Notes under the pieces: model-generated
The model's input: the letters and a program-made list of their open reading frames with translations, nothing else
Told to the model about the DNA's origin: nothing
The model's database searches: none
Shown: one piece after another, positions 1 to 63,228 of the stretch
How positions within the stretch are numbered: the first letter of the stretch is position 1
Layout: each line of letters starts with the position of its first letter
Origin: Paraspadella gotoi
Taxonomy: Eukaryota; Animalia; Chaetognatha
DNA: 64,000 nt
Direction: 5' to 3'
Assembly (NCBI GenBank): GCA_051294375.1
Contig: CM119268.1
Span: forward strand, 18,742,615 to 18,806,614
Made by a program: the position numbers and the translations under genes

Positions 1-667
1 TCATGATCATATATATGAACATATTATTATTTTCTAACTTGTTATTCCATACTTTTGGACATATTAAAACAGTATTGTGTACTATCTGTACTAACGTTTC
101 GAGAATTTTCGAAAGAGGTCGAGCCGAAAAGGAAGGCGGACGGATGGGCGCTCAAGCGAGGGAACAGAAAGAACAGGCGCTTGATGGGGAACCATCGAGT
201 CTTCTCTCCCTCACGAGGAACGGAAGCTTAATTTGGAAGGGAATCTGGCGATTAGCGTCACAGACGAAATCAATTGCGATCGATCGACGCGGGTTAATCC
301 GGATTGCAGATGGAAACGGAGTTCGGGAGGCAAGAGACTGAGATTGGAGAAAAGAGGCCCGAGAGTTTGATTGGGTAAATTGGTTAATGTTGTGATTGGA
401 GAAAATAGAGTCTGATTGGAGAAAGAGAATACAAGATCCTCATATCTCATACTTGTGGAGATAAGCTGTGATTGGAAAAAAGAAAAGAATTAAAAAAGAC
501 AATCCTATTGGAAAAAAAGAAAAACGTGTGGAAAATTATAGAGCTTGTTTATTAAATAGGTAATCTTAATATGGTTGTACTGATTGTTGAATGATTATAG
601 AAAAATGGATATTTTATAGCAACGGGAGGATAGCCTGTGATACCCGGGGCGCGGGGTATCTCACCAA

Positions 668-747
668 CTGGCGTAGGGGCTGCGGACCCTCAGTGACCGC
701 CTCCTGTCACTGGCATTTTTATACCGGCACCGTCACATTTAAGCCAG
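668..747 (-). ncRNA. Twister ribozyme, P5-type permutation (copy A1)
   Basis: Minus strand reads P5 CUGGC-uuaa-P2' AUGU-GA-T1 CGG-P1 ugccggua-U^AA-P2 AAAU-GC-P3 CAGUGAC/GUCACUG-P4 AGGG-L4 U CCG CA GC-CCCU-ac-P5' GCCAG. Predicted cleavage 721/720. One P2 mismatch, and L4 has CA where AA is usual. Confidence 0.8.
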
Positions 748-762
748 AAGCGGGATACCCAG

Positions 763-815
763 GGATTGAACCCGGGACGCACGGATGGAATGAGATGATT
801 TAGCCTGCTCAGCCA
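763..815 (-). promoter_or_regulatory. Putative Pol III type-2 internal promoter (A box + B box)
   Basis: Minus strand TGGCTGAGCAGG (815-804) fits TRGCNNARYNGG. GGTTCAATCC (772-763) fits a B box inside a T-arm-like hairpin, 31 nt away. Both motifs are conserved in the copy at 62867-62920. Confidence 0.45.
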
Positions 816-2959
816 TTGAGACGAGGCTGAGGACGGACAGCAGTGAGGCAGCTTTAAGTCTTGCTGCCACAATTTACGGTATTAGGAAAAAGGGAATGAG
901 TTGAAAAAAATAACTTCTTCTAATTTAAAGTGTTTGATTTGAAAATGAATAGAATTTCAGAGGAAAAAATTAAAGGAGACTGAGCAACCAAACCCATGGT
1001 ATAAAGAATGGAACTCGAGATTCCATTCTCGATAAAGTTTTCATAAAGAACCTNNNNNNNNNNNNNNNNNNNNNNNNNNNNNNNNNNNNNNNNNNNNNNN
1101 NNNNNNNNNNNNNNNNNNNNNNNNNNNNNNNNNNNNNNNNNNNNNNNNNNNNNNNNNNNNNNNNNNNNNNNNNNNNNNNNNNNNNNNNNNNNNNNNNNNN
1201 NNNNNNNNNNNNNNNNNNNNNNNNNNNNNNNNNNNNNNNNNNNNNNNNNNNNNNNNNNNNNNNNNNNNNNNNNNNNNNNNNNNNNNNNNNNNNNNNNNNN
1301 NNNNNNNNNNNNNNNNNNNNNNNNNNNNNNNNNNNNNNNNNNNNNNNNNNNNNNNNNNNNNNNNNNNNNNNNNNNNNNNNNNNNNNNNNNNNNNNNNNNN
1401 NNNNNNNNNNNNNNNNNNNNNNNNNNNNNNNNNNNNNNNNNNNNNNNNNNNNNNNNNNNNNNNNNNNNNNNNNNNNNNNNNNNNNNNNNNNNNNNNNNNN
1501 NNNNNNNNNNNNNNNNNNNNNNNNNNNNNNNNNNNNNNNNNNNNNNNNNNNNNNNNNNNNNNNNNNNNNNNNNNNNNNNNNNNNNNNNNNNNNNNNNNNN
1601 NNNNNNNNNNNNNNNNNNNNNNNTCTGAAATTGCAAACGTGTTTCTGTTTTGCTTGTTTTCGTTAAAAAGTAATTTATGTATAATATTTAATAGTTTATA
1701 TACAATAAGTAGTACTGATTGTATATAAAAGTGCATTCATGCATATTTTTTTTATCTCCCCACCATCCCACAAAGCCAAAGGTCATGTCAATATCGAAGT
1801 AGTACAATCGTTACTACTTCTTTTCGCTTTGGGTCGCAAAAGAGTTTTATCGGATTCAATGTTTGTGCCGAATCGGAATCCAGTTGTTGTTGTTGTTGTC
1901 GTCGTTGTTTGCGCCGTTCGAACAGCCTTCCAGGCGATTCTGTTTTCTAAGCGAAAAAAAGTTTGTGCCGACCTGTTTGAGACAAACANNNNNNNNNNNN
2001 NNNNNNNNNNNNNNNNNNNNNNNNNNNNNNNNNNNNNNNNNNNNNNNNNNNNNNNNNNNNNNNNNNNNNNNNNNNNNNNNNNNNNNNNNNNNNNNNNNNN
2101 NNNNNNNNNNNNNNNNNNNNNNNNNNNNNNNNNNNNNNNNNNNNNNNNNNNNNNNNNNNNNNNNNNNNNNNNNNNNNNNNNNNNNNNNNNNNNNNNNNNN
2201 NNNNNNNNNNNNNNNNNNNNNNNNNNNNNNNNNNNNNNNNNNNNNNNNNNNNNNNNNNNNNNNNNNNNNNNTTTTCTCTCTTTTTCTCTGTATTTTCTCA
2301 TTTCCTTCTGTCTTTTTGGGACAAAAAAGTCGATTTTTCGTCCAAAGTGTTTCATCTCAGTCGGTGTTACACTTTCTTTATTTTCTTCACTTTTTTGTTT
2401 TTCTTCATTTCTGTCAGTTTTTCTTTCTTTTTTTTTTTTGCGTCCTTCGCACTTACTCTTCCACGCGTTCTTCTTTCTTATCTCTCCTTTTCTTTCTTCA
2501 CACGACTTTCCTTCGTTTCGTCCTTGACGATTTAAACTTACCTCGACTTAGAAGATTACGTAGTTTAATGTTTTTTCTTATCTTCAACACCTTACCATTT
2601 TTTATGACAAGCTGTATCAGCATTTTATTTCCATTCGACCTTTTCTTCTGCCTTCCTTCCATTTTTCACTTTGATGTTCTTTTACAAATTTACTCTCNNN
2701 NNNNNNNNNNNNNNNNNNNNNNNNNNNNNNNNNNNNNNNNNNNNNNNNNNNNNNNNNNNNNNNNNNNNNNNNNNNNNNNNNNNNNNNNNNNNNNNNNNNN
2801 NNNNNNNNNNNNNNNNNNNNNNNNNNNNTCTCTCTCTCTTTCTCTCTCTCTCTTTCTCTCACTATCGCCCAGTCTCTGTCTCTGTCTCTCTCTTTCTCTC
2901 CCACTTTCACCCTCTGCTGCTCGCTCAGTCTCCGAGCGCAACTTCCTCTGAAAATAAAT

Positions 2960-4230: not shown

Positions 4231-4464
4231 TGAGGAAGAGAAGAATATTTAGCATATTTAAGAAGATAAATTAAGCCACTGCAATTGCTTGGTTCTAAGC
4301 TGGTTCTAAATACTTGAAATTTTTTTGCACCCAATTTATTGTCTCCGGCTTGAATCTCTCCAAAAAAACGTTTGCTTCATACTTAATGAATTTTTTTTTT
4401 CAAAAGTTTGTCATCAGGAGAAAACATGAGAAATATTAAAAATATGAGAAACAATAACGGTAAT

Positions 4465-4782
4465 TCCAATGTGTTGCGCCGCAGTGACTTTATTTCCACG
4501 TGTATTTCCCTTTGATCACATGATATGACACGACTAAAAACGTTTTTGCCAGTGTATTTATTACATACACAGCATCCAAGACTTTACTTATTCCTTATAG
4601 TTTTAGGAATTCCTGAAGGGGCGCTAGCAGTCCCTTAGATTTGAGGTTTTTTTCTGTCTTAACAAATGATATGCAATGTTAACATAAGTGGGATAGACCG
4701 ACGGACAGATATTCCGACGGACCGACCGACGGACCGACGGACCGACCGAAATGTATAGAGTTGCTCGCGGCGCAACTAAAAT
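4465..4782 (-). mobile_element. Non-autonomous Helentron/DINE-1-like (HINE-type) element
   Basis: Minus strand starts TTTTAGTTGCGCCGCGAGCAACT (terminal palindrome), then a (GTCG/GTCC)n microsatellite, and ends with the inverted subterminal motif GCGGCGCAAC. Body is homologous to 60845-61192 (e.g. AAGGGACTGCTAGCG, AAATAAAGTCACT). Confidence 0.6.
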
Positions 4783-6961: not shown

Positions 6962-7414
6962 ATCCATTGATTTTTTTCGGGCTACGCGCAAAAGCTTTGC
7001 CCGTGACACATTGACTAGCATCTGAACTGCAAAGTCAATTGGAGAGAGCCAAAGGATGTAAGAGAGAGATAGAGAGAGAAAGTGAGTGAGAGAGAGAAAG
7101 AGAGAGAGATAGAGAGCACATTTGAAGACTGTGTGCGCTAATAAAAAGATATTTCTTAAACATTTTTAAAAGAAAATTATTTAAAAAAAAAAAGAGGCTT
7201 AGAAAAGAATAAGCTAAAATACATCGGTAATTACATGGACGATCACGTGACTACATAACTATGTAATATATGTATAACAAATGTTCTATGGTTTAATCAC
7301 TTATATGCAAAGTTTTAACCAAAACAACCAAATATTATACAAAATCACAATATCTACAAAATATACTATGGCAACAGCCGGGTTGCCTGTGATGCCCATT
7401 GGGATGGGGCAGAT

Positions 7415-7498
7415 GTTAGCTTTTGGGGGCTTCCGACCCTTAGTGACGCGCTCCAGTAACTGGCGCGGTTACCCTAGGACGGTCTCCGCTTTGCCAAC
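7415..7498 (-). ncRNA. Twister ribozyme, P5-type permutation (copy B1)
   Basis: Minus strand reads GUUGGC-aaa-GCGG-a-GA-CCG-UCC ua GGG-U^AA-CCGC-GC-P3 CAGUUAC/GUCACUA-AGGG-U CGG AA GC-CCC-caaaa-GCUAAC. Canonical L4 with T1 CGG/CCG. Predicted cleavage 7471/7470. One extra A before GA. Confidence 0.8.
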
Positions 7499-7891
7499 GC
7501 AGAGGGAAGTCGTTAGGACTTGGATGAACACTACGCTTGGGATGTGTGTTCCCCTCTGAGCCAATGGATTTGGCTGAAGGACGGTGGATGTGAGGCAGTG
7601 TGAATATACCACCACAGGATCCCCGGGCCAAGACATCACTCAGGTTCCTCAAGCCAGAGAGGTGTCTTGACAAGACTGTTACCATAGTGGGAGAGAGAGG
7701 AGAGCGCGAGTTGGGGGGGATAGGCGTTTGTTGTAGCGACTACCCAAGGGGTATAGGCGTTTGTCTTATACGCAGATACCGAAGTCGGAGCATAGTCGTC
7801 GTAGCGTACCCTGAGAGGTGCGTGTTTGATAGTAGCACCACTTATGGCAACAGCCGGGTTGCCTGTGATGCCCATTGGGATGGGGCACTCA

Positions 7892-7962
7892 GTTGGCTGG
7901 GCTTCCGACCCTCAGTGACGCTCCAGTCACGGAGCCACAAGGACGGTTCTCGCTTTTCCAAC
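7892..7962 (-). ncRNA. Degenerate twister ribozyme (copy B2)
   Basis: Retains P5, P3, L4 (U CGG AA GC) and the T1 partner CCG, but the UAA cleavage motif and P2 strand are missing as assembled. Confidence 0.5.
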
Positions 7963-8319
7963 GCAGAGGGAAGTCGTTAGGACTGGTAATGGACAACCGG
8001 AGGTGCGCCTGAGCCATGGATTGGAAGGCCAAGGAGGAGCATAGTGGAAACCGCCACAATACCATATTTATTTTATGATTATGCGACTGTATTTTTATTT
8101 TGTCATGTGATAAAGGAAGTATGATACATAAGCACAAGAAGCATTTACTTATTAACTTAACTTATTAGTCTCCAAAATGTCTAAGTCTTTCATGTATTAG
8201 GCAAATCATCATATGATCGCTTTTTGATTATGTGAATGTACAAGTATGATACATATGCATATGAAAGATCTTTTGGTACGTCACCCTCCTACCGAATGAT
8301 AACTTCATTGATGCTGTAT

Positions 8320-9428: not shown

Positions 9429-11716
9429 CTAAACTGACCGCAGGCCCGGATAAAGGCTCGCGCGTGGCGGGTGTTCCCGCTCCTGTCCCAAAGCGCCTCA
9501 CCAGCGACACCTCACGGTACATAATCTCCGTCGAGTAAACGCGCCCGAAATGAACCCTGAGACGAGAGGAAGTGGATTGAGAGGAAAATGAGAGGGCACT
9601 GAGAAATGAAGGAGCGGACTAGTATAAATGTTGCAGGTGGTGGCACCGAAGATGAACCATTCTTAGTTAGGAAAATTGTGGGATGAGGGGAAACGAAAAA
9701 TGGTAAATTGGGTGTGTTAAAAGCAAGCGAAACTTTACATATATTAATTTAATGTTAGACATAGTGTCTGTCTAATGCCGAAAATGTACGTCTAAAAACT
9801 TGAATAAATAGAATCGTAGTAATCTCAAATTAACTACAACGTCTCTTCTGATTATTTACCATGATACACTTGGTACAGTTCGGGGGTAGAAATTATATGT
9901 TTTGTTTATAAAGAAGGTTAGTAGAACATATGTATTTTGAGTCTTTACTTGTCGAAATCTTTCACAAGTCAGGAGAATTTTTGAGTCGTTGCGTGTGGTT
10001 AGAGAGAAGAAGATATCAACGTTATGAACTAAAAATAATGAGTCAGCACATAAAGAGTTAAAAGAGAGTTCCTTGAACAAATTATTTCCATGTTCCTATT
10101 AATATGGCAATATATAAATATAATATAATTATAATATAATATATATATAATATAGCGGCAGCTTCCTTATGACCACCAATTAACATAGAGTGGAGCACCA
10201 AGAACAAAAATTTATTTGAGTGATTTGAACAACTGATATTTAAGATTGTGAGATAGTAATGATTAACTAATATAAAAAAATTTTTGTTCATATTATCTCG
10301 GGAACAGAATAGTAAAATATAATATATTTATAGTATATCTTATAAAATAGTAAATTTTAAAAATAATTTTAATAAAACTTTTATAAAGAATTCAGTATTC
10401 TGTCATACAAACAAGGTTGAATCAAAAAATATAAAACATGTTATCAAAAATTCTGTCATCTTAAATGTTTTATAATAAGAAAAAAGGTGAAAATTCTTTG
10501 ACTTTTTTAATTCTCTGTAGTAGAAACTTATATTATGTTTAACACGTTTTAGTCATTTTTTGTGGATCTAAACATTGAAATTATCATATAAATATTTTAT
10601 AAAATGTTCTAGTTTTGATTGCGAATCCAAATCAGTTCTTAAATAAAAAACAATTATTTTGAATTTGACGATTTTATAAAGGATATTACTACATAAATAA
10701 TTGAATTTGCTATAAACTGTTATGCTAAAAAAAATTTTAAAAGGATTAAAAATTCATTAATTATATGTCTCATAGGTCAGCAAATAAATAATGTTCAATC
10801 ACTCAATCTTTTCAATCACTCCACCCTAATCCATAAGTAGTAGCTTCCCCCACCTCCCACCTCACCACATGCTTCCTGTCCAGCCATTCTGTCTTCGTCG
10901 TGCAGATAAAGAATTGGCTCTTGTTCGTGTTGGGCCCCGCGTTCGCCATCGACAGCACACCGGGTCCAGAGTGTTGCAGGTGAAATTTCGTCGTCGAAGG
11001 GCTGACCGTAGATGCTCTGACCCCGTGCCGTCGCTCGGGTGAAGTCCCCGCCTGGAAAAGAGAGGGGAGAGGCTTTTAGTGAAAGAATAAAGAGGAAGTG
11101 TGGTTGATAGAGAGGTAAAGTCGTTTAATAGAGAGGAAGTGTTGTTGAAAGATAGGTAGCGTTGATAGAGAGGATTATATTTTAATGACGTAGTGGGAGA
11201 GGAGTGTCGATACAAGTAGAAGGGAAGTAGAGAGAAAAGAGGAGGATAGAAAGGGAGGAGAGGAGAGAGAGAGGAGGAAATAGAGAGGAGAGAAGAGGAG
11301 GAGATAGAGAGGAGAGGACAGGGACGATAAGGGCGTTGATGAAGAGCAACTGGGAAGAAGTTTTTGGAAAGGTTTAGAAACTCTTTCCAATAAAAAGGTC
11401 GAGCTTTAGTTTAAAAGATAATGATAATTCAAGTTCTTTACATACAATTTGCACATACTGAGAGAAAATATAACTTGTGAGACAAATGTTGTATTTACTT
11501 AAACCTCAAAAAAAAAGAAAAACTTGTCGTAAACACCGACGCTTCTCTGTCCAACATACTTAGAGCGAAGCTTAAGTCTCTTTCAATCACCCGAGCGCGA
11601 GTATTAATAGCGGCGAAAAATGAACAACGAGAGAAAAAAAGGACAATAACAATAAAGTCAACAAGGAAGCAAAAGAGAGACTAAAAGCGTGCGTAGAAAC
11701 GACTTCCGAATGTAAA

Positions 11717-11755
<39 letters not shown>

Positions 11756-12684
11756 CAAGAAAGAAAGAAAGAAAAAAGAAAGAAAGAAAGAAAAGAAAGA
11801 AAGAAAGAAAGTAAAAAAAAGAAAGAACTAATGGCTAATAGCGAGAAAGTAAAATTGGCTGGGAAGATAGACGACGTTCGCGGGTAAGTGAATTAACGAG
11901 AGTAAGTCACGTAAGCATGGACTTATTCTGTTGTCTGTGTTGTCGTCAATTATTAAACTGTTTCGTCACTGAATTATTACCTAATTGTTTCAGTCCTCGG
12001 AATTTGTTAAGGGGAGAAGGCCACAGAAACAATATTTTCATTATCAAATTAAATTATTCGCTGACGAGCAGAAAACAGAGTCATTGTGGAGCGAGAATAA
12101 AAAAACACAAAAAAAAAAAACAAAAACAAAAGAACAGAGGGATTACCACTGAGAACCGTAGAACCAGTGAAAGAGAGAGAAATATGAAATTCTCATTTTT
12201 ACTTTTTAATCGAAAACATATGAAAAACAAATAAATAACAACGAAGTACGTAGTTAAAGGAAAAATATTATTTGAAAATTAAAAAAAGAAGGTCAAAATA
12301 GTAGAAAAACTAAAATTTTACGCTCAAAAATAGTGTTAAATACGTATAGGTTTTAGTATTTTTGAAATATTTTGAGAAAAAAGAAATTTTGATATCTTTT
12401 ATTCATTTGCTATAATTTAATCTAAAAATAAAATATAAATAAACTTTTTCACTTTACTTTCCACCATCCCGAGTTCCTCACCCTAACTCACCTGAATCAT
12501 AAACCGAGGGATGATGCGGTGTGGAAGGCGCTGCCTTGTAATCCGACCCCTTCTTCCCGTGCAGAGAAGCGGAAATTCTCGGCGTTTTCGGCACCACACG
12601 TCCGGCCGAAGCCTCCATGGTGATGCGTCCGGCGTCGTACTCGCCCGAGGAGAACGTCGAAATAACGCGAGGCAGAGCTGACAT
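9429..12684 (-). pseudogene. Frameshifted inverted copy of the cyclophilin gene (pseudogene or error-laden assembly duplicate)
   Basis: Exons at 12684-12492, 11051-10866 and ~9556-9429 mirror the + copy but carry many single-base indels typical of unpolished long reads. Confidence 0.75.
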
Positions 12685-13225
12685 TTTGGTTTTCGTTGTT
12701 TTGTTTTGATTTTTATTAGTTTTTTTTTGTTTTTATTTTTTATTTTTTCTTTATTTTTTTAGATTAATTCCCCTTTTATATATTTAATTAATAATTTGTT
12801 ATTTCTTTGTTTTCAAATCACTGTTTTTATTCAAGGCTAGTAAAGTGAAAATAGAGAAAAATGAGGTAGGTTGAGCTTTTGCCGGGAAATTATTTTTTTA
12901 TCTTTATATTAGTAAAATTTTTAATCGTCTCAGTCTCTGTCACGCTGTCTCTGTCTCTCACGCCAAATCGTTTTTTCCGCAAAGAAATAAAAAAAAAGAT
13001 AAAGAAATGCGAACGATCGTTGATTTAAGGAGAAAGCTCTCAGTCTCGATCTCGCTCCACGTCTCGCTCTCTCGCTCTCCATTTTTCTTCACTCTTCTCT
13101 TTTCTCTCGCTCTCATCGCTCTCTCGCTCTCGCAACGCCCACTCGGTCTCGTTCCGGTCGCGAGCGCGTCGGCGTCGAAAATGACGGAGACTGAATTTCT
13201 TTTCCGCTGCTGAGGTTTATCGTTT

Positions 13226-13258
<33 letters not shown>

Positions 13259-14134
13259 CAAGCTCCTCGTTAGTCGTCGTTAAGGTCAACGCAAGAGACT
13301 CGAGTAATCAGCCGTCGTCGTTGTTATATTCGTTGTTTGTTTTGTCGTATATGTGGTTTATAAATCAACAAGTGCCTTCGTCGTCGTCGTCGTCGTCGTC
13401 GGCGTCGTTGTCATGGGAGACGCCCTTCGATGAGATTAAAAATTTCGTGCGAAACACCTATTTGTTTGTTTTTTTTTTTTTTTGTTTTTTTTAGATCGAA
13501 GACGCTTTCTCCGATTTAGGAGATTTGTGGTCACGTGATCTAAGATGATTCGAAACGTTTAGTTAGTATTTAATATTTTTAAGGTGAATCGTTTATATTC
13601 CAGTTTTATTCGCGAAGAGACGTCGTTTCCAGTGACGCCTGAAGAATTAAAGAAAATAAGTTTGAGGAAGAGAAAAAAAAATCTTACCTTTTTCTTTATC
13701 AAGCGGAGATAAACAATAAAAAATTCGTGCTCCTTAATTGCCTCTTCCTCTCCCTCTCCTCTCTCTCTCCTCTCTCCCCCTTCTATCCTTTTTCTTCTCT
13801 TCCCTCCTTCTCCTCCTTTCTTCTTTCTCCCTTTTCCCTTCCTCTCTCTCTCTCCCATTTCTGCTCTTTTCATCTCTCTTCATGTTATTTTCTCTTTTTA
13901 GTCTCTCGTGTTTGTTTTTGGACTGTTTTTCTTTGACACTGCCGATGATAGGGCTCCACAGACGTCGACCAAAACGACGACAGTGACGAAGACCACGGAC
14001 GACGTTGACGACGACGATGACCACGACGAAAACGATGACGTTGACCCCGAAAATATAAAAAACGAGGATGATCCCTAATGGTCAATGGTCGTCGACCAAA
14101 ACGATGCTTATGACCATCACGATTACAAATACTC

Positions 14135-14162
14135 AATAATATAATTATAATAATAATAATAA

Positions 14163-14208
<46 letters not shown>

Positions 14209-14210
14209 TA

Positions 14211-14249
<39 letters not shown>

Positions 14250-14275
14250 TAATAAATAATAATAATATAATATAC

Positions 14276-14310
<35 letters not shown>

Positions 14311-14350
14311 TAATAATAATAATAATAATAAAATGAATAATATAAATAAT
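14135..14350. repeat. (AAT)n microsatellite
   Basis: Direct reading; shorter mirror copy at ~17460-17540. Confidence 0.9.
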
Positions 14351-14549
14351 AATAATATTAAATAAATATTAATGATGATAGTAATGGTAATAATGATAAT
14401 GATAATAACAATCAAAAGTAAAAAACGACGACGACGATGACGACGACGATCATAATACATCAGGATTTCTCTGCCGTTGATGAGAATTTTATCTTATGAA
14501 ATTTTTCCTAGTGCTTTTTTGTTTGTTGTTGTCTTATCTTTCTCTCTCA

Positions 14550-14631
<82 letters not shown>

Positions 14632-15792
14632 CTCCGAGTGTGTCACTTTCATCTTCACACATTCTTTGTTTCTCGGGACAAAGAAATTTTTTCACCACCA
14701 GGATTTTCTCTCCTAATTATATATTATTTATATATTTATAAACGCAAAACTTAGTTCCTTTTATTGTTTTAACATTACGTAACGTCTTGAAGTAAAAAAT
14801 CTCGCACAACATTTAATGAAACAAATACATGATTACGATCAATTTGAAAATTAAAAAAAAAACTACTGTAATAACTTTTCATTACATAATTGATAAGTGG
14901 TTTAAGGCTAATATTCATCTATTGATCAATGATAATCATTATCTTTTTTTTAAGTCACTCGGTATTTCCGATTTTTATTTTCGTCGCGTTAGGCGTCGAA
15001 GATATCTCGTCTCGATTGGCAAAGCTTGTATCGCTTGGCAGACGCCTATTTTGCTTGCCTCATTCGCAATTTAGCTTTCATTAGGACGAAACCCCTCGTC
15101 GTTCGGTCCTCAAGGTCGCGAAAGAGAATAAAGCATTTGTTTTATTTTTTTCTCTCCTTCGTTTTTCTTTCGTTTCTTCCTTTGTTTTGTTGTTTTTTTC
15201 TTCTTTTGTTCCCCCGAGAAACTTGTTGCATCATTAAGCGGAAAGGAGGCTAAACGGATTAATCAGTAGGAGACAGTGAGAAAAAAGGTTGAGGCGGTGA
15301 GAACGGATGGAGGCGGGTGAGGCCGGTGAGGTGAGGGGAACAGAAGGTCAGATTCTTGAGAAAGAGAGAAAAGCGATTGAGTCCGACTTTGTTTAGATGA
15401 AGTTGATGGGGAGGGTGAGGGGGTTGGTTGTTGTTATTGTCGTTGTTGATGCTTGCTTGCTTGCTTGTTTGCTTGCTTGCTATTGTCGTTCGTGGAGATT
15501 GAGATTTGGGGGATGAGATGAATGCGATGGTGAAGTTGGTAATCCCATTATGAAATTTAAAGAAACATATTATTTTGCTAAAATAATATTAATCTGATTC
15601 GAAATATGGAGAAGAGATATTTCATTTTTTAATAAAAGAACATATAAAGATGGATAAGTTGAGGAGAGAAGGAAAGATGTGAGAACTCAGTCGTGATAAG
15701 TGAAGGAAGTGAAAGCGAATCACAGTCCTCGTGCAAACGTGTATCTCTCTGAAAATGGAATCGAGGGAGACGTGGGACTGGCACACACACAC

Positions 15793-15865
<73 letters not shown>

Positions 15866-15900
15866 TTATAATAAAAGAGGGAGAGAGAGAGAGAGAGAGA

Positions 15901-15972
<72 letters not shown>

Positions 15973-16005
15973 AAAGCCAANNNNNNNNNNNNNNNNNNNN
16001 NNNNN

Positions 16006-16043
<38 letters not shown>

Positions 16044-17231
16044 GTGTGTGTGTGCCAGTCCCACGTCTCCCTCGATTCCATTTTCAGAGAGATACACGTT
16101 TTGCACGAGACTGTGATTCGCTTTCACTCCTCACTTATCACGACTGAGTTCTCACATCTTTCCTTCTCCCTCAACTTATCCATCTTTATATGTTCTTTTA
16201 TTAAAAATGAAATATCTCTCTCCATATTTCGAATCAGATTAATATTATTTTAGCAAAATAATTATGTTTCTTTAAATTTCATAATGGATTACCAACTTCA
16301 CCATCGCATTCATCTCATCCCCCAAATCTCAATCTCCACGAACGACAATAGCAAGCAAGCAAACAAGCAAGCAAGCAAGCATCAACAACGACAATAACAA
16401 CAACCAAACCCCCTCACCCTCCCCCATCACTTCATCTAAACAAAGTCGGACTCAATCGCCCTTTCTCTCTTTATCAAAATCTGACCTTCATGTTCCCCTC
16501 ACCTCACCCGGCCTCACCCGTCCTCATCCGTTCTCACCGCCTCACCTTTTTTCTCATGTCTCCTACTGATTAATCCGTTTAGCCTCCTTTCCGCTTAATG
16601 ATGCACAAGTTTCTCGGGGAACAAAAAGAAGAAAAAAACAACAAAACAAAGGAAGAAACGAAAGAAAAACGAAGGAGAGAAAAAAAGTAAACAAATGCTT
16701 TATTCTCTTTCGCGACCTTGAGGACCGAACGACGAGGGAGTTTCGTCCTAATGAAAGCTAATTGCGAATGAGGCAAGCAAAATAGGCGTCTGCCAAGCGA
16801 TACAAGCTTTGCCAATCGAGACGAGATATCTTCCGACGCCTAACGCGACGAAAATAAAAATCGGAAATACCGAGTGACTTAAAAAAAAGATAATGATTAT
16901 CATTGATCAATAATGATTAGCCTTAAACGACTTATCAATATGTAATGAATAGTTTATTACAGTAGTGTTTTTTTTTTAATTTTCAATTGATCGTAATCAT
17001 GTATTTGTTTCATTAAATTAAATGTGTGCGAGATTTTTACTTCAAGACGTTACGTAATGTTAAAACAATAAAAGGAACTTAAGTTTGCGTTTAAAATATA
17101 TAAATAATATATAATTAGGAGAAAATCCTGGTGGTGAAAAAATATTTCTTTGTCCCGAGAAACAAAGAATGTGTGAAGATGAAAGTGACAACACTCGGAA
17201 GAGAGAGGAAAGGAGAGAGAGAGAGAGAGAG

Positions 17232-17287
<56 letters not shown>

Positions 17288-17478
17288 TCAGAGAAAGATA
17301 AGACGAACAACAAACAAAGAGCACAGGAAAAAAAATTTCATAAGATAAAATTCTCATCAACGACAGAGAAATCCTGATGTATTATGATCGTCGTCGTCAT
17401 CGTCGTCGTCGTTTTTTTACTTTTGATTGTTATTATCATTATCATTATTACCATTACTATCATCATTAATATTATTAA

Positions 17479-17539
<61 letters not shown>

Positions 17540-18058
17540 GGAGTATTTGTAATCGTGATGGTCATAAGCATCGTTTTGGTCGACGACCATTGACCATTAG
17601 GGATCATCCTCGTTTTTTATATTTCGGGGTCAACGTCATCGTTTTCGTCGTGGTCATCGTCGTCGTCAACGTCGTCGTGGTCTTCGTCACTGTCGTCGTT
17701 TTGGTCGACGTCTGTGGAGCCCTATCATCGGCAGTGTCAAAGAAAAACAGTCCAAAACAAACACGAGAGACTAAAAAGAGAGAAATAACATGAAAAACGA
17801 GAGAGAGAGAGAGAGAGAGAGGCAATTAAGGGAGCACGAATTTTTTTATTGTTTATCTCCGCTTGATAAAGAAAAAGGTAAGATTTTTTTTCTTCTTCCT
17901 CAAACTTATTTTCTTTTAATTCTTCAGGCGTCACTGGAAACGACGTCTCTATCGGAATAAAACGATTTCACCTTAAAAATATGAAATATAACTAAACGTT
18001 TCGAATCAATCTTAGATCACGTGACCACAAATCTCCTAAATCGGAAAAGCGTCTTCGA

Positions 18059-18106
<48 letters not shown>

Positions 18107-18885
18107 AAATTGGTTTTCGCACGAATTTTAAATCTTCATCGAAGGGCGTCTCCCATGACAACGACGCCGACGACGACGACGACGACGACGAAGGCACTTG
18201 TTGATTTATAAACCACATATACGACAAACAACAACAACGAATATAACAACGACGACGGCTGATTACTCGAGTCTCTTGCGTTGACCTTAACGACGNNNNN
18301 NNNNNGGAGCTGCTGTTGTGGTTGCTGTTGCTGCTGCTGTTGTAAAGCGATAAACCTCAGCAGCGGAAAAGAAATTCAGTCTCCGTCATTTTCGACGCCG
18401 ACGCGCTCGACGCCGGAACGAGACCGAGTGGGCGTTGCGAGAGCGAGAGAGCGAGAGAGCGAGAGAAAAAGAGAAATGAGTGAGAGAGCGAGAGAGCGAG
18501 ACGTGGAGCGAGATCGAGACTGAGAGCTTTTCTCCTTAAATCAACGATCGTCGCATTTCTTTATCTTTTTTTTATTTCTTTGCGGAAAAACGATTTGGCG
18601 TGAGAGACAGAGACAGCGTGACAGAGACTGAGACGATTAAAAATTTTACTAATATAAAGATAAAAAAATAATTTCCCGGCAAAAGCTCAACCTACCTCAT
18701 TTTGCTCCTATTTTCACTTTACTAGCCTTGAATAAAACACTGATTGAAAAACAAAATTAAAACAAAAGATAAAAATTATTAATTAAATATATAAAAGGGG
18801 AATTAATCTAAAAAAATAAAGAAAAAATAAAAAATAAAAACAAAATAAAAACTAATAAAAATCAAACAAAACAACGAAAACCAAA

Positions 18886-19078
18886 ATGTCAGCTCTGCCT
18901 CGCGTTTATTTCGACGTCTCCATCGGCGAGTACGACGCCGGACGCATCACCATGGAGCTTCGGCCGGACGTGGTGCCGAAAACGGCCGAGAATTTCCGGC
19001 TTCTCTGCACGGGAGAGAAGGGGGTCGGATACAAAGGCAGCGCCTTCCACCGCATCATCCCTCGGTTTATGATTCAGG
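18886..19078 (+). CDS. PPIA: Cyclophilin A-type peptidyl-prolyl cis-trans isomerase, exon 1 of 3
   Basis: [64 protein letters not shown](G); phase-1 donor G|GTGAGT at 19079. Symbol denotes the family (PPIA-like), orthology not established. Confidence 0.93.
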
Positions 19079-19788
19079 GTGAGTTAGGGTGAGGAACTCG
19101 GGATGGTGGAAAGTAAAGTGAAAAGTAAGATTTTAGTCTTTCTGTTTATTTATTTATTTTTAGATTAAATTATAGCAAATGAATAAAAGATATCAAAATT
19201 TCTTTTTTCTCAAATATTTCAAAAATACTAAAACCTATACTGTATTTAACTTTGAGCGTAAAATTTTAGTTTTTTTCTACTATTTTGACCTTCTTTTTTT
19301 AATTTTCGAATAATAATTTTCCTTTAACTACGTACTTCGTTGTTATTTATTTGTTTTTCATATGTTTTCGATTAAAAAGTAAAATGAGAATTTCATATTT
19401 CTCTCTCTTTCACTGGTTCTACGGTTCTCAGTGGTAATCCCTCTGTTCTTTTGTTTTTGTTTTTTTTTGTTTTGTGTTTTTTATTCTCGCTCCACAATGA
19501 CTCTGTTTTCTTGCTTCGTCAGCGAATAATTTAATTTGATAATGAAAATATTGTTTCTGTGGCCTTCTCCCCTTAACAAATTCGAGACTGAACAAATTAG
19601 GTAATAATTCAGTGACGAAACAGTTTTAATAATTGACGAGACAACAGACAACAGAGTAAGTCCATGCTTACGTGACTTACTCTCGTTAATCACTTACCCG
19701 CGAACGTCGTCTATCTTCCCAGCCAATTTTACTTTCTCGCTATTAGCCATTAGTTCTTTCTTTTTTTTACTTTCTTTCTTTCTTAATT

Positions 19789-19868
<80 letters not shown>

Positions 19869-20558
19869 TTTACATCGGAAGTCGTTCTACGACGCTTTTA
19901 GTTCTCTTTTGCTTCCTTGTTGACTTTATTGTTATTGTCCTTTTTTTTCTCTCGTTGTCATTTTCGCCGCTATTAATACTCGCGCTCGGGTGATTGAAAG
20001 AGACTTAAGCTTCGGCTCTAAGTATGTATGGACAGAGAAGCGTCGATGTTACGACAAGTTTTTTTTTTTTTTTTCGAGGTTTAAGTAAATACAACATTTG
20101 TCTCACAGTATAATTTTCTCTCAGATGTGCAAATTGTATGTAAAGACATTGAATTATCATTATCTTTTAAACTAAAGCTCGGACTTCGTTATTATGAAAG
20201 AGTTTCTAAACCTTTCCAAAAACTTCTCTCCCAGTTGCTCTTCATCAACGCCCTTATCTCCTGTCCTCTCCTCTCTATCTCCTCCTCTTCTCTCTTCTCT
20301 ATTTCCTCCTCTTCTCTCCTCTCTATTTCCTCTCCTCCTCTTCTCTCCTCTCCTCTCCTTTCTATCTCCTCTTTTCTCTCTACTTCCCTCTACTTGTATC
20401 GACACTCCTCTCCCACTACGTCATTAAAATATAATCCTCTCTATCAACGCTACCTATCTTTCAACAACACTTCCTCTCTATTAAACGACTTTACCTCTCT
20501 ATCAACCACACTTCCTCTTTATTCTTTCCTAAAGCCTCCTCCTCCCTCTCTTTTCCAG

Positions 20559-20749
20559 GCGGGGACTTCACCCGAGGCGACGGCACGGGGGGTCAGAGCA
20601 TCTACGGTCAGCCCTTCGACGACGAAAACTTTCACCTGCAACACTCTGGACCCGGTGTGCTGTCGATGGCGAACGCGGGGCCCAACACGAACAAGAGCCA
20701 ATTCTTTATCTGCACGACGAAGACAGAATGGCTGGACAGGAAGCATGTG
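20559..20749 (+). CDS. PPIA: Cyclophilin A-type PPIase, exon 2 of 3
   Basis: Polypyrimidine tract plus CAG acceptor; [64 protein letters not shown]; donor GTGAGG at 20750. Confidence 0.93.
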
Positions 20750-21402
20750 GTGAGGCGGGGAGGGGGGGGGAAGCTACTACTATGTTGATTGGTGGTCATA
20801 AGGAAAGCTAGCGCTATATTATATATTATATTATATTATATTATATTATATTATTATTATATTATATTATTTATATTATTATATTATATTATATTATATT
20901 ATATTATATTATTATATTATGATAGGACATGGAAAAATTTGTCAAGGAACTTTTTTTAACTCTTTATGTGCGACTATTATTTTTAGTCATAACTATATCG
21001 TTCTTTTTATACCACACGAAGATTACAAAATTTTCACTTGTAAAGATTTCGACAAGTAAGACTAAAAAAAATATTGTATTAAATCTTTATAAACAAAACA
21101 TAAATTTCTACTCCAGAAACTGTACCAAGTGTATCATGTAAATAATAGAAGACGTTTTTAATTTGAGATTACTACGATTTTTTATTTCAATTTTAGACGT
21201 ACATGTTTCGGCTTTAACAATGTCTAACATGTAAATAATATTTAAAGTTCCTTGCTTTTAAAACCAATTTACATTTTTTCCTCACCACAATTTTTCCTAA
21301 CTAAAATGAGTTTTATCTTCGGCCACACCTGCAACCATTTATCTGCCGCTCCTTCATGTCTGCTCCTCTATTTTCTCTCCACTCCACTTCCTCTCCGCTC
21401 AG

Positions 21403-27209: not shown

Positions 27210-28734
27210 CTCTCTCCCTCTTTTCCCTTGTCTATCGGACAACCAAAACGGAAAACGATTTCCTGATCAAATTATTTTCTAATTTCTTTTTTTTCTTCTT
27301 CTTCATTGTTTTTTTCTTTTTTCCTCCTTGATTCTTAAGGAGTGTCGAGCCCCGCCCCTTTCTTCTTACTTCTATTCGCTTGGTAAGGAAGGAGAGGTGA
27401 GTTCGCTACTGCTGCGGATTCTTGAGAAGATATTCGCTGAATTGTAGGAACTGCGGCCGGTGTCGAAAGCGAGAACCTTAGGTCCTTACTTCTCTTTATC
27501 GACCAAATCCTGGAAGCAAAAATCTGCTTAAACACTTTGTCCCTACGATTCCCTTTTGTTCTGCGTACAATGCCAACTGCAATGAAAACAACGACAGGTA
27601 ATTTAGATTCCTCTTTGTTTTCCGTTCACGATGCGGACGACGACGACGACGACGACGACCGACGACGACGATTACTAAGAATCCATTGAGTTTTTGTTTT
27701 ACTCCAACAACAACGACGATACCAAACGCGAAGCAAAGAACTGACAACAACTAAAAACCTTCAAATAGACTACAAGACACAACAACAACATTTCCACTTC
27801 CGCTTCTCCTCTCGCGCGTCGTCGTTGTTGTTGTTGTTATTGTTGTTGTCGTAGCTTCACTCAAGGGTTTCGATTTCTTCCTTAGGCGGATCCCTTAGTT
27901 TAAATCGAGCGAGGGAAGAAAAGGATTTGAGGTAGTGAAAGTAGAAAGGAGGTGAGTTGTGGGTAGTGGATAGAGAAAGGAGGTAAGTTGTGGGTAGTGG
28001 ATAGAGAAAGGAAGTGAGNNNNNNNNNNNNNNNNNNNNNNNNNGAGAAGAAGATTCAAGATGGCTGACCAAAGTCTCGGCAAAGATGTCGTCGACGCAAG
28101 GCGGACGATCAAGTCGATGCGAAATCCAGGAATCTTCTCTGAAGCTAAAAGAGCTTGAAGCTAAAGCCGGAAGCTAAAGTTAGAAATCCTGGACAAAGGG
28201 AACAAAAACATTTAATACACACTCAGTAAATATATATATAAATTTTAAAAGAGATTCTTTACTTGTTTCTGAAGCCAGAATTGTAAAATGTTGCCTCTAT
28301 CACAAAGAAAGTCCACCAATCCAGCGACACAAAAACTTATTATTAAAAAAACGTGTTTCCGAGAATATCTATATGCGAATTGTAGAAAACTTATTAAAAA
28401 GTAGCAAAAACGCAGTGTGAGACTAAGGAATTATGAAAGGCTACACGTCGATAGAAATCAGGACTGAGATCTTATCGAAACGGGCGGCAACCAATCAGAG
28501 CCCGCCACGCACTGCCTCGGAAACTTGTACTCAAGTATATACTTTAATACACAATCGAAACTACAGTGGTCGCTGTGATCGCCAGAAGAAACGGAATATT
28601 CCTTGCGTTAGTAAGGGAAACCAAAAGATCAGTTGGGAAAAGGTAGAGAAGCTGGAATTTCCTCGTAATTATTGAATCAATTATTACGTAACAGGCGGAT
28701 CCCTTAGTTTAAATCGAGCGAGGGAAGAAAAGGA

Positions 28735-29395
28735 TTTGAGGGTAGTGGAAAGAGAAAGGAGGTGAGTTTGTGGTAGTGGATAGAGAAAGGAGGTAGTTGT
28801 GGGTAGTGGATAGAGAAAGGAAGTGAGTAAGTTGGGTAGTGGATAGAGAAAGGGGTGAGTGTGGGTAGTGGATAAGTAGAAAGGAAGTGGAGTAGTGGGT
28901 AGTGGATAAAAAAGGAGGAGAGTAATTGTGGGTAGTGGATAGAGAAAAGGAAGTGAAGAGTAGTGAAGGTATAGGGATATAGAAAAGGAGGTGAGTTGTG
29001 GCTTGAATTGAGCAAAGGAGGTGGGGTTGTGGCGTAGTGCCCGTAGGAAGAGCGGATAGTGGGAATACGGGTATGGAACTAGAAAGGAAGTGGGAGTAGT
29101 GGGCTAGTGGAATAGAAAAGGAGGTGAGTTTGTGGGTAGTGGATAAGAGAAAAGGAAGTGAGTAGTGGGTAGTGATAGAGAACAGAGGTGAGTTGTGGGT
29201 AGTGGATAGAGAAAGGAAGTGAGTAGTGGGTAGTGGATGAAAAAGGAGGTGTGAGTTGTGGGTAGTGGATAGAGAAAGGAAGTGAGTAGTCGGTAGTGGA
29301 TAGAAAAAGGAGGTGGGTTGTGGGTAGTAGATAGAGGAAGGAGGAGAGTTGTGGGTAGTGGATAGAGGAAAGAGAAGGGTTGTGGGTAGTGGGTG
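28735..29395. repeat. ~30-bp minisatellite (GGAAGTGAGTTGTGGGTAGTGGATAGAGAAA-like)
   Basis: About twenty imperfect units. Its start and left flank are duplicated at 27885-28018, just before a 25-N gap. Confidence 0.85.
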
Positions 29396-36394: not shown

Positions 36395-36935
36395 GGGTTG
36401 GTGGGAGTGAGAGCTGGAGAGAGTGAATAGTGTTTGTGTGCGGCATGGTGGGCCAGTACAGTGAGGAAGGAAGTGATAGTGGTTTGATGGTGATGGCGGA
36501 GGAGAGTGCAGGAAATGATAATGTTGTGTGATGGTGAGAGTGGTGGGAAGCGAAGAGAGGAGAAGTGATAGTGGTTGGGATGTGTGGGATGTGAGAGTGG
36601 AGGAAAGTGATAGTGGTGCGCTGTGATGCCGTGAGAGGGGTGGGATTGAAGTGAGGAAGTGATAGTGGTTGTGACGTGGGGAAGTGAGAGTGCGGAAGAG
36701 AATGTGATAGTGGTTGGATAGCTGGTGGGAGTGAGATAGTGAGTCGAGTGATAAGTGGGTTGTGCATTGGGGAGTGAGAGGGAGCATGTAGGCCATCTGG
36801 TGGAGTGGGAGTGAGAGTGAAGGAAGTGATAGTGGTTGTGACGGTGTGAGTGAGAGTGAGGAAGTGATAGTGCGTGTGATGGTGGGACGTGGCGGGAGTG
36901 AGAGTAGAGGAAGTGATAGCTGAGTAGTGTGATGC
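36395..36935. repeat. ~39-48-bp minisatellite (GGAAGTGATAGTGGTTGTGATGGTGGGAGTGAGAGT-like)
   Basis: Tandem units; mirrored at 47778-48255 and 53945-54240; source of the His/Thr/Pro-rich ORFs. Confidence 0.85.
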
Positions 36936-43034: not shown

Positions 43035-44751
43035 AAAAAATTAATGATCCACACTATGTACAATTATGTAACTCAGATATACGAGCACCTAAGTGATTAT
43101 CGAGCTGAGATGGCTTTACTCAACTGAGCCATCGGGTCACGACTACGGAAGGTGTCATCCGCTATAGGAGGGGGTGAACCTTAGGCAATCAATTAAAAAG
43201 AAATCTTACTTATATAGTCAACATACGTATAGTTAGCTGTATAAATAACATAGATCGAGTGGTATTATAATCAGGGGACTAATCCCGATAATTGGGTATG
43301 GTAATTTCAATGTTTACTAGCAGCATACTGCAGCTTTCAATTTTTTTAAAATAAAAAAATTAAAGTACTGACTGAATTTTTATTGGCTTGTTATATATAT
43401 AATATAGATTATAATTGCAAGAAGTTAGATTTTTTATTTCGAGCAAATGCCATAAACGTACTCTCTCAATACTACCGATTAAAGAAACCCATTAGGTTGA
43501 TCATGTGTAACTTTTGCACAGGAAGTTGATTTTAATTATTTGGACGCGGAGCAAAAAATGTCTTAAAAACGATTCTTCTGCGATAAAAATTAAACAATTT
43601 TGTAAACAATCGTGCGTAGGGCGAGGATCAATTAAGGGGGTAAGGTTCAAGTCCGAAATCTTATATTAGAGCAGTCTACATTTACAAATAAGTGAGGTAC
43701 AAGGCTATTCTTAGTGTAATGTCAGTCTGTAGAAATTCGATGGTGATGACCATGTTTTTTAGTATTAATATATATATATATGTCGGAAATGACGGGTTTT
43801 ATGTTCGTAACGTTTATAAAATAGGCAACCATTATAAAGTTATGATAAATCAAATTATTAAAATTTTTAAATTTAATATGACTTTTGAATATAAAAATAA
43901 AGTACTTATAAAAATATTTTGGTAAGTTTATTTTCTTAAATTTTAGTTTAAATCTATAAAGTTGTTACTATATATTTATTAATAATTATAAGTAAAATTG
44001 GCTAAAGTAAAAAATAATAATTTCAAAAATTTTTTCATGGATTTGGATCTTTGGCAACAAGTTGATATAAAAGAATATAACTTTGTATATCAAAATTTAT
44101 GTCATTAAGTGTGGTAAAATTCATAAAACTATAGAATCTTAAAGACAAAAATTGAAACAAATTAAACAAAATAGATGAGTTTTTTAATTCTTTTACACTA
44201 CATTATGAAGATTTTTTAATGGATATATTTCTATATCAATTTTTGGTAAGATTCCAAATTCGATTATTAAAATTAAAATTTTTAATTTTCAACTTTAGCT
44301 TTTTTTATTATTATATTAATTATAATATAGTGTACAAACTATTAATGAAATAATAATTTGTAACAAATTACCAAAATATTTATATGCGTCTTTATAGGTA
44401 TGTAGTTTTGCTTCTTGCACTAACTACTTAAGATAACTTGAGTTTCTATAAACTCTACAATGTTTGGCGCTACGAGTTTTAATAGCACGTTATTTGCTCG
44501 CAAAAATCGCCATTTCCGACAAAGAAGAAAATGAGACTGACTACAAAAAGTGATATCATCATCGAATTCTAAGAGAGAGATATATATTATATATATTAGT
44601 ACGTTTACTTGATTTGGTTAATTTCGATTATTTTTCAACGCCACTATATGATTTTTTTCAACGCCCTATATGTTATCGATGTATGTATTGTATATTGTAA
44701 AACTTTTCTGTTCCCATTCTGATAGGCGATCACTAACAAATTTTCTCTCTC

Positions 44752-45629: not shown

Positions 45630-47540
45630 TTCTCTCTCCCTCCCTTTTCCTGATGGCCTTTGTTTTGTTATTCGTTTCTCCTTTTGCTTTCTCTCTCAGA
45701 TATAGGTCTCATAATCGGGTGCTTATATCGCCTTCGTTTTCGCCATGAGAGACGATATTCCAGGGGTCAATGCAATCGACGACGAAGAGTGTGAGAGAGA
45801 GAGAGAGAAGAGAGAGAAGAGAAGAGTAGAGAGAGAGAGAGATGAGAGAGAGAATGAGAGAGAGAGAGAGAAAATTGCTAGTGAAATCGCCTATCAGAAT
45901 GGGAACAGAAAGTTTTACAATATACAATACATACATCGATAACATATAGGGCGTTGAAAAAAATCATATAGTGGCGTTGAAAAATAATCGAAATTAACCA
46001 AATCAAGTAAACGTACTAATATATATAATATATATCTCTCTCTTAGAATTCGATGATGATATCACTTTTTGTAGTCAGTCTCATTTTCTTCTTTGTCGGA
46101 AATGGCGATTTTTGCGAGCAAATAACGTGCTATTAAAACTCGTAGCGCCAAACATTGTAGAGTTTATAGAAACTCAAGTTATCTTAAGTAGTTAGTGCAA
46201 GAAGCAAAACTACATACCTATAAAGACGCATATAAATATTTTGGTAATTTGTTACAAATTATTATTTCATTAATAGTTTGTACACTATATTATAATTAAT
46301 ATAATAATAAAAAAAGCTAAAGTTGAAAATTAAAAATTTTAATTTTAATAATCGAATTTGGAATCTTACCAAAAATTGATATAGAAATATATCCATTAAA
46401 AAATCTTCATAATGTAGTGTAAAAGAATTAAAAAACTCATCTATTTTGTTTAATTTGTTTCAATTTTTGTCTTTAAGATTCTATAGTTTTATGAATTTTA
46501 CCACACTTAATGACATAAATTTTGATATACAAAGTTATATTCTTTTATATCAACTTGTTGCCAAAGATCCAAATCCATGAAAAAATTTTTGAAATTATTA
46601 TTTTTTACTTTAGCCAATTTTACTTATAATTATTAATAAATATATAGTAACAACTTTATAGATTTAAACTAAAATTTAAGAAAATAAACTTACCAAAATA
46701 TTTTTATAAGTACTTTATTTTTATATTCAAAAGTCATATTAAATTTAAAAATTTTAATAATTTGATTTATCATAACTTTATAATGGTTGCCTATTTTATA
46801 AACGTTACGAACATAAAACCCGTCATTTCCGACATATATATATATATTAATACTAAAAAACATGGTCATCACCATCGAATTTCTACAGACTGACATTACA
46901 CTAAGAATAGCCTTGTACCTCACTTATTTGTAAATGTAGACTGCTCTAATATAAGATTTCGGACTTGAACCTTACCCCCTTAATTGATCCTCGCCCTACG
47001 CACGATTGTTTACAAAATTGTTTAATTTTTATCGCAGAAGAATCGTTTTTAAGACATTTTTTGCTCCGCGTCCAAATAATTAAAATCAACTTCCTGTGCA
47101 AAAGTTACACATGATCAACCTAATGGGTTTCTTTAATCGGTAGTATTGAGAGAGTACGTTTATGGCATTTGCTCGAATAAAAAATCTAACTTCTTGCAAT
47201 AAACAAATATTATAACAAGCAATAAAAATCAGTCAGTACTTTAATTTTTTTTATTTTTAAAAAAATTGAAGCTGCAGTATGCTGCAGTAAATTGAATTAC
47301 CATACCAATTATCGGGATTAGTCCCCTGACTTATAAACCATCGATCTATGTTATTTATACAGCCTAATATACTATGTTACTAGTATAAAGTAAGATTTCT
47401 TTTAATATTGCCTAGGTTCACCCCGCCTATAAGCATGACACCTTCAGTCGTGACCCGATGGCTCATTGAGTAAAGCCATCAGCTCATGATCACTAGGTGC
47501 GTATATATATACATACATGTACATAGTGTGGATCGAATTT
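43035..47540. repeat. Fold-back palindrome centred ~45305 on a (GA)n tract
   Basis: Arms are near-identical (identical 77-aa ORFs at 43692-43925 + and 46690-46923 -); the left arm is also a direct copy of ~37180-39450. Confidence 0.9.
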
Positions 47541-62978: not shown

Positions 62979-63228
62979 ATTCTTTTTATCAACTTTTTAT
63001 GACGGATCCAAATCTGCAAAAAACTCTTAGAAAAAACTGTTTTGAAATTTTAACATTTATTGGATTAGTACTAGTATAAATATGGCCTACTGCGTAAATT
63101 GTAAAATTTATTATAAATTTTTTTTATACATTAGTATAATGTTGTTCGTTCCTCACTTTTAGAATTTTAATTAAAGTTAAATTTAGAAATTTTACTACGC
63201 CTTATTATCCACCCCACCCCACCTCAAG

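Follow-up and report, generated by a model that had tools for sequence, protein, structure and literature searches.

A predicted P5-permuted twister ribozyme in the terminal repeats of a small, Helenus-like LTR element of Paraspadella gotoi

In the accessible text of the relevant reports, LTR retrozymes are placed in plants, with hammerhead ribozymes, and twister ribozymes are tied to non-LTR elements (PMC7761336, PMC6765202, PMC5680766, PMC13725137, 10.64898/2026.07.22.740005); the published links between twister and retroelements concern the non-LTR Perere-3 and the 5′ ends of RTE elements (PMC7761336). Plant LTR retrozymes (Cervera 2016, PMC4918200) measure 600–800 nt and are described with a type III hammerhead within each LTR and a tRNA-Met PBS. 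Metazoan non-LTR retrozymes and Schistosoma Sm-alpha (PMC7229834; bioRxiv 10.64898/2026.07.22.740005) have type I hammerheads, are tied to Penelope-like elements and, as those reports describe them, lack LTRs, a PBS and 4-bp duplications. Helenus/TRIMp3 elements (Kojima 2024, PMC10886601) are non-coding and shorter than 1 kb, with two repeats around a short middle and solo repeats.

Here we describe, from a 64,000-nt stretch of Paraspadella gotoi DNA (GCA_051294375.1, contig CM119268.1; hereafter the window), an element that on its sequence is a Helenus-like TRIM bearing a predicted twister ribozyme. Like plant LTR retrozymes, it has homologous copies of a putative ribozyme motif in its LTRs (the 5′ copy, B2, is broken), a non-coding middle, 4-bp duplications, solo LTRs, a GC content of about 56% and an RNA predicted to pair with itself; unlike them, it has a twister in place of the type III hammerhead, a smaller predicted RNA of ~475 nt, tRNA-type Pol III boxes, no tRNA-Met PBS and an animal host (PMC4918200). 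As it has neither the hammerhead nor the tRNA-Met site, we set it outside the LTR retrozyme family proper. The architecture set out above for Helenus/TRIMp3 recurs here, as do tRNA-derived A and B boxes in the repeat and the 4-bp duplications of animal Helenus, and the TG..TA ends have counterparts in some published Helenus LTRs that likewise end in TA (PMC10886601). In contrast, the available text of that report mentions no ribozyme and places the tRNA part of Helenus LTRs towards the 3′ end, where a T run comes after it and no space is left for a ribozyme; here the tRNA part falls in the 5′ half, and the ~145 nt after it contain the twister. Because the PBS and purine tract are weak, the ends are TG..TA and the tRNA part is differently placed, we do not file the element as a Helenus member. 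High-copy, small, non-coding repeats with tandem ribozymes in an animal are features in common with the metazoan non-LTR retrozymes and Sm-alpha (PMC7229834; 10.64898/2026.07.22.740005). A ribozyme within the terminal repeats of a small LTR element is a design that we found described only in plants, with a different ribozyme; a literature search covering few subscription papers, and neither the original twister alignments nor Repbase, returned no twister in an LTR element, and neither a shared motif nor a copy turned up when the supplements of PMC8501958 and PMC10886601 were searched for motifs, although FASTA line breaks may conceal one.

The window consists of AT-rich DNA laden with microsatellites; it has 14 N gaps and contains many blocks that nearly duplicate one another. 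Near-duplicates of 77–95% identity, long and in both inverted and direct orientation, adjoin N gaps at 10836–20781 and 30517–59831 and look like gap-filling artefacts of noisy long reads, so single-base features of the assembly need care. Also present are a second dispersed repeat pair, inverted and 69% identical (4457–4749 and 60864–61200), and purine/pyrimidine-skewed minisatellite arrays of 31-bp and 39/48-bp units (27931–29392; 36396–36934, 47736–48295, 53946–54239). A search of the window for the AGGGU..AGCCC core returned four copies, A1, A2, B1 and B2, all on the minus strand and at the places where an initial annotation of this DNA had put them:

668–747, minus strand: twister copy A1, with one P2 mismatch; predicted cut 721/720.
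62773–62852, minus strand: twister copy A2, all helices fully paired; predicted cut 62826/62825.
7415–7498, minus strand: twister-type ribozyme copy B1, P5 permutation; predicted cut 7471/7470.
Parts of B1, minus strand: P5 7498–7493/7420–7415; catalytic G 7484; T1 7482–7480 with 7435–7433.
About 7962–7893, minus strand: twister copy B2, without UAA and the T2 GC.

Read against the published twister layout (PMC8501958, PMC5408937), the order of parts (P5, P2′, GA, T1′, P1 hairpin, UAA, P2, GC, P3, P4, L4, P4′, P5′) is, judged by sequence, that of a P5 circular permutation of twister in which P1 is reduced to a tiny hairpin. Most twisters differ in this respect, P5 stems being present in about 1% of those annotated (PMC6154101), and P1 and P5 are described as dispensable or optional helices (PMC6154101, PMC5408937). 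Three of the four copies (A1, A2 and B1) fit this fold, and three of the four carry defects. The L1 UAA cut site opposite GA (which supplies the general-base G and A46) is present in A1, A2 and B1 and absent from B2; the same three copies have the T2 pseudoknot (GC/GC), P4 with U24.A29 and a T1 pseudoknot between L4 and L1 with all three pairs Watson–Crick and one two-sided swap. P2, which in twisters directly precedes GA, has four of four pairs in A2, three of four in A1 and, in family B, three of four plus a C.A beside the active site; 5′ of GA, B1 carries one base more than its family does. P4 comprises four pairs in A and three plus an A.C in B. The alignment of A with B is gap-free from GA to P4, with 42 of 59 core positions identical; the catalytic G, A46, UAA, T2 and U24/A29 are unchanged in A1, A2 and B1, and the flanking repeat is just 60–63% identical. 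The UAA cut site, GA with its general-base G, four-step P2 (fully paired in A2), GC/GC T2, P3, P4, U-NNN-N-A-GC loop and 3-bp T1 are shared with known twisters (RF03160 twister-P1, twister-P5, rice Osa-1-4 and the Schistosoma Sma-1 series), whereas T1 reads CCG/CGG or CGG/CCG here and CCC/GGG in the published twister (PMC8501958).

The motif scores below all Rfam twister thresholds. An Rfam scan of the whole 64-kb window gave no match at gathering score and no hammerhead match; over element B (7200–8200) there was no match at E ≤ 1 and over A1 none at E ≤ 10, and the twister-P5 model matched nowhere. Over A2 at E ≤ 10, the sole match was to twister-P1 (62830–62760, 18.4 bits, E 0.21), against a gathering threshold of 67.2 bits that is a curation rather than a mechanistic criterion. 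Minimum-energy folding did not produce the twister fold and gave stabilities no better than those of shuffles (z −1.9 to +0.2); in A2 the nested part of the fold lies 6.5 kcal/mol above the minimum, with pseudoknots not scored. A family-agnostic P5-twister descriptor, which was composed after the copies were known, matched A1, A2 and B1, themselves homologous to each other, and nothing else in the window, against five matches in 600 windows after local shuffling (a chance rate of about 0.008 per window). A two-part twister pattern had no matches in viral and metagenome contigs, and shorter patterns had 1 and 21, all 22 being chance matches without upstream twister parts. The surroundings of one of these (bacterial contig L015, 1130–1290) resemble a cobalamin riboswitch.

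Between families A and B, T1, P2, P1 and P5 appear to have drifted while staying paired. The initial annotation had these four helices changing on both sides and read the pattern as selection on the catalytic fold. As MAFFT misregisters P2 and P5, we counted pairs by coordinates. The T1 swap is real but amounts to a single pair (G–C to C–G in CGG:CCG to CCG:CGG), the other two being unchanged. P1, described as going from UGC/GUA to UCC/GGG, contains one two-sided change (G.U to C–G), but also a one-sided one (U–A to U.G), and its third pair closes a 2-nt loop; P5, with five pairs in A and six in B, likewise contributes one two-sided change (C–G to U–A) and not a whole helix. The P2 strands proposed for A, AUGU/ACAU, are those of A2, but A1 reads AAAU and has one mismatch. 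Those proposed for B, GCGG/CCGC, did not survive, as they require B1's extra A to bulge between P2 and the catalytic GA. Because 94–99% of public contig depth across 7486 has one base fewer (four of four runs), the family's P2 is read as GCGA/CCGC, with two compensatory pairs, one unchanged pair and one C.A mismatch. The same contigs carry a pairing base at 7441 and 7458 in 87–100% of depth, such that family B keeps A's P3 stem and the two P3 pairs broken in B1 are not family-wide, and at 7418 in 71–82%, which leaves family B's P5 fully paired; positions 7486, 7458 and 7441 are thus private departures of B1. The elements listed as fixed (GA, UAA, GC, AGGGU and AGCCC) are so in A1, A2 and B1 but not in B2, which has neither UAA nor the T2 GC.

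Counted in this way, A and family B differ by five compensatory pairs (one in T1, two in P2, one in P1 and one in P5), along with one non-pairing two-sided change, one wobble and one break. A2 and B1 differ by two-sided changes at one T1, one P1, one P5 and three P2 pairs (the last only with the bulged A before GA), two wobble changes and three broken pairs (two in P3 and one at the P4 base). The outer P4 pair goes from A–U in A to A.C in B, and L4 position 28 is C in A and A in B. Six doubly changed pairs among 28 gave P = 0.0034 for A2 versus B1 and 6e-5 for A2 versus family B, with P = 5.7e-4 when P1 and P5 were left out and P = 0.034 for the gap-free core alone (19 pairs), under a null in which changed positions fall at random on pairs, phylogeny is ignored, two lineages are compared and the outcome depends on the P2 and P5 registers. 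With only two lineages, a phylogenetically valid covariation test is not possible. On these comparisons, the two-sided changes do favour selection on the twister fold sometime after the A/B split, not present activity. The earlier interpretation stands in so far as the two-sided changes exceed chance, the catalytic positions are invariant and the T1 swap is one that the rice twister tolerates only when both sides change, but its compensatory count was too high: five pairs, not four helices. A hairpin 3′ of the ribozyme, GAU(A/G)CCC..GGG(U/C)AUC, shows one A–U/G–C swap between A and B, by which structure is evidently kept outside the ribozyme too:

Approximately 62766–62744, 661–639 and 7411–7388, minus strand: conserved 3′ hairpin.

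That two-sided change in a hairpin outside the ribozyme, the absence of a significant Rfam score and the P value of the gap-free core are what would be seen if the resemblance to twister were fortuitous and the paired changes were those of generic hairpins in a GC-rich repeat. We regard this as very improbable, since the descriptor seldom matches by chance, T1 is a long-range pseudoknot that generic hairpin upkeep would not preserve, and the catalytic positions are all invariant amid flanks that have diverged to 60–63% identity.

A deep scan of the rice Osa-1-4 twister (PMC5113685) offers a scale for these departures. There, C26G alone scores 0.09 and the double C26G+G48C, equivalent to the T1 swap between A and B, 0.74, with every change at G48 below 0.20; C27G alone scores 0.13 and C27G+G47C, the swap that parts both families from the published T1 (PMC8501958), 0.86. 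At 1.00 for A28C and 0.97 for G44A, the rice twister tolerates changes of the kinds represented by A's C28 and by the C.A pair of family B. We took these values from the supplement matrix by our own column count; they are 2-h end points on another scaffold and concern single and double changes, a range that does not extend to family B's combination of two helix-end A.C mismatches. At that resolution, the departures seen here are of the kind that a working twister tolerates, the T1 swap only as a pair. B1 itself may be impaired, because the active site is believed to be upset when a P2 pair is gained or lost (PMC5408937).

The two helix-end A.C mismatches of family B weigh against an active ribozyme element. 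Together with the defects in three of the four window copies and the lack of any Rfam-level match, the C.A next to the active site and the A.C at the P4 base would suit a relic, in which twister was selected when A and B diverged, today's copies, above all those of family B, have lost cleavage and the element spreads simply as a Pol III TRIM. Against this, A2 is fully paired, and G44A and A28C are tolerated in rice (PMC5113685). In addition, the contig variant table, which is not exhaustive, lists no substitution at or above 3% across 7459–7485 (GA, T1, UAA, the P2 5′ strand and T2) and one at 3–15% in the P3 loop, although this lends weak support, because the table skips sites near alignment ends and missed the majority change at 7441. 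We consider a relic improbable.

All four motifs sit in homologous units of ~250 bp that start with TGTGG and, where intact, end with TTGCYATA:

7367–7616, minus strand: 3′ terminal repeat (LTR) of B, 250 bp, starting TG and ending TA, with loose Pol III boxes at 7563 and 7529.
7617–7842, minus strand: internal domain of B, 226 bp, non-coding.
7843–8058, minus strand: 5′ terminal repeat of B, 216 bp, deletion-ridden, holding B2.
8059–8062, minus strand: target-site duplication GTAT, upstream copy.
7363–7366, minus strand: target-site duplication GTAT, downstream copy.
615–871, minus strand: solo repeat A1, 257 bp, AAAT on each side, with a strict A box at 815 and B box at 771.
62730–62976, minus strand: repeat A2, last ~10 bp missing, with a strict A box at 62920 and B box at 62875.

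Element B, the sole full copy in the window, totals 692 bp (216 + 226 + 250) in the order repeat, 226 bp, repeat, which is below the size limit of about 1.3 kb for Helenus/TRIMp3, and A1 is a solo repeat. The two insertions that retain both of their ends are each flanked by 4-bp target duplications, for which base frequencies give a probability of about 0.008 apiece, and at both ends of the repeat, one of them 7616, public contigs run on into AT-rich DNA that is unrelated. The fixed ends carry imperfect terminal inverted repeats, read TG..TA and not TG..CA in three of three cases, and have no A-tail. A homologous ribozyme motif lies in both B repeats (that of B2 is broken in this assembly), which are identical at 185 of 250 positions (74%); the A1 and B1 units are identical at 163 of 257 (63%), far above shuffles, and A and B are probably two diverged families of one element. 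All copies share 56 nt of conserved sequence from TGTGG to the A box. A PBS-like site, whose TGG begins 2 nt past the 5′ repeat, has no match beyond 6 nt to the tRNA 3′ ends listed for Helenus, and the polypurine tract is weak, consisting only of GGGGA 3 nt from the 3′ repeat. No coding capacity was found in the middle domain. A 15-mer within it (7690–7676) is complementary to the repeat end and the PBS-like bases, and 8 of 2,000 shuffles pair equally well. The last ~30 nt of the repeat and the PBS-like bases pair with the 3′ middle domain in a long rod (7873–7837, 7690–7676, 7626–7612, minus strand), which in this model could hide the primer site or play a part in packaging or priming.

A2 is embedded in AT-rich inverted repeats, with 74% arms and an additional palindrome (62431–62592, 62599–62729, 62977–63133), that are related to 43856–44078, 46537–46759 and 10527–10700; to judge from the sequence, A2 probably inserted into a member of a MITE or fold-back family. 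Origins as a Penelope pseudo-LTR or a DIRS element were set aside, because the fixed TG start and the 4-bp duplications speak against both, as was a plus-strand orientation, since that strand has no PBS-like TGG, boxes or ribozyme.

Several features weigh against an LTR-type element with working ribozymes: one full element only, repeats just 74% identical, a broken 5′ ribozyme, a PBS match of at most 6 nt, a weak purine tract, TG..TA ends and degenerate B boxes. The weakness of the PBS and of the purine tract, the presence of a ribozyme after tRNA-type boxes, the 26% difference between B1 and B2 and the uneven depth over the middle domain would also be expected of a tRNA-headed, ribozyme-bearing repeat of SINE or satellite type, comparable to Schistosoma Sm-alpha and metazoan non-LTR retrozymes, with B a tandem pair or two neighbouring insertions. 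Such a repeat would have to accommodate 56 nt of conserved sequence before the A box, fixed ends with imperfect inverted repeats and no A-tail, and 4-bp duplications around both the whole B element and the solo A1; non-LTR retrozymes, as described in the available text, are without LTR features and have longer duplications (PMC7229834). We hold this reading to be quite improbable. Over all the readings that keep both the twister and an LTR-type carrier, the relic included, the motif is very probably a present or former twister in such an element.

In all three DNA runs that cover the unique flank, contig depth summed across the ribozyme is 700–9,000 times that of the flank, an order-of-magnitude ratio rather than a copy number, which marks the element family as very abundant. 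Public contig cover in B is little or none at 7745–7806 and 7993–8054 and varies over the middle domain. A1 and A2 have strict A and B boxes of tRNA type, 44–45 nt apart, upstream of the twister, and this pair has only these two matches in the window and arose in 4 of 200,000 shuffles. B1 has the start of box A and a degenerate box B, and no box B was found in B2. The scan used standard patterns for the two boxes; TRGCY (box A) and GGTTC (box B) are also given for the tRNA-derived boxes of Helenus (PMC10886601). ARAGORN found no tRNA gene in the repeats, and the sense strand of B and A1 contains no T4 run, which is weak evidence for Pol III. From the boxes and the absent T4 run in B and A1, transcription by Pol III is likely.

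In the life cycle that we propose, the tRNA-type boxes of the 5′ repeat would direct the start of transcription by RNA polymerase III, and the twister would cut once per repeat, releasing an RNA of ~475 nt (about 476 nt by the unit-to-unit spacing) with 5′-OH and cyclic-phosphate ends. Cleavage itself is likely by analogy with described twisters. The monomer would be circularised by an RtcB-type ligation, and the circle reverse-transcribed and integrated by a Gypsy-type partner. Both steps are likely on the precedent of related elements: animal retrozyme RNA is ligated by RtcB (PMC7229834), and Gypsy-type copying and integration have been proposed for plant retrozymes (PMC4918200), as has Gypsy mobilisation for animal Helenus (PMC10886601). 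Because cuts at the same site in both repeats leave no terminal redundancy, a circle is the simplest template from which full repeats could be regenerated.

A different outcome would follow if the element were a TRIM with an active twister that only forms the 3′ end of a linear Pol III transcript, replacing the T-run terminator of Helenus; the 5′ copy would then adopt an inactive fold, ~100 nt of terminal redundancy would remain and standard LTR strand transfer would proceed with no circles. In the published Helenus LTRs examined, the B box is closely followed by a run of T or pyrimidines towards the end of the repeat (PMC10886601), where a twister and no T4 run are found here, and alternative folds are more stable than the twister fold, both of which suit a linear transcript. 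On the other hand, no sequence feature sets the 5′ copy apart from the 3′ copy in an intact element, and tandem ribozymes yield circles in plants and animals (PMC4918200, PMC7229834). We judge the linear transcript unlikely, albeit the strongest of the alternatives, and lean slightly towards a P5-permuted twister in an LTR-type element that works as in plant LTR retrozymes. The fuller proposal, that this is the first LTR retrozyme of an animal and the first based on twister, a Pol III-driven, Gypsy-mobilised TRIM present in thousands of copies and making a circular RNA of ~475 nt, we advance tentatively, at a little under even confidence.

The biological roles of twister are known in few cases, at the 5′ ends of non-LTR elements. 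The element described here would join twister, the LTR retrozyme plan and the Pol III TRIM, the last so far described without ribozymes, and would represent a high-copy twister family missed at Rfam thresholds. It would offer a natural twister-based generator of circular RNA and allow a clear test of how an LTR element replicates without terminal redundancy. If the proposal is true, the rare P5 twister gains a biological role, the retrozyme life cycle would extend to a second ribozyme class and a second kingdom, and LTR retrozymes arose more than once, with interchangeable ribozymes.
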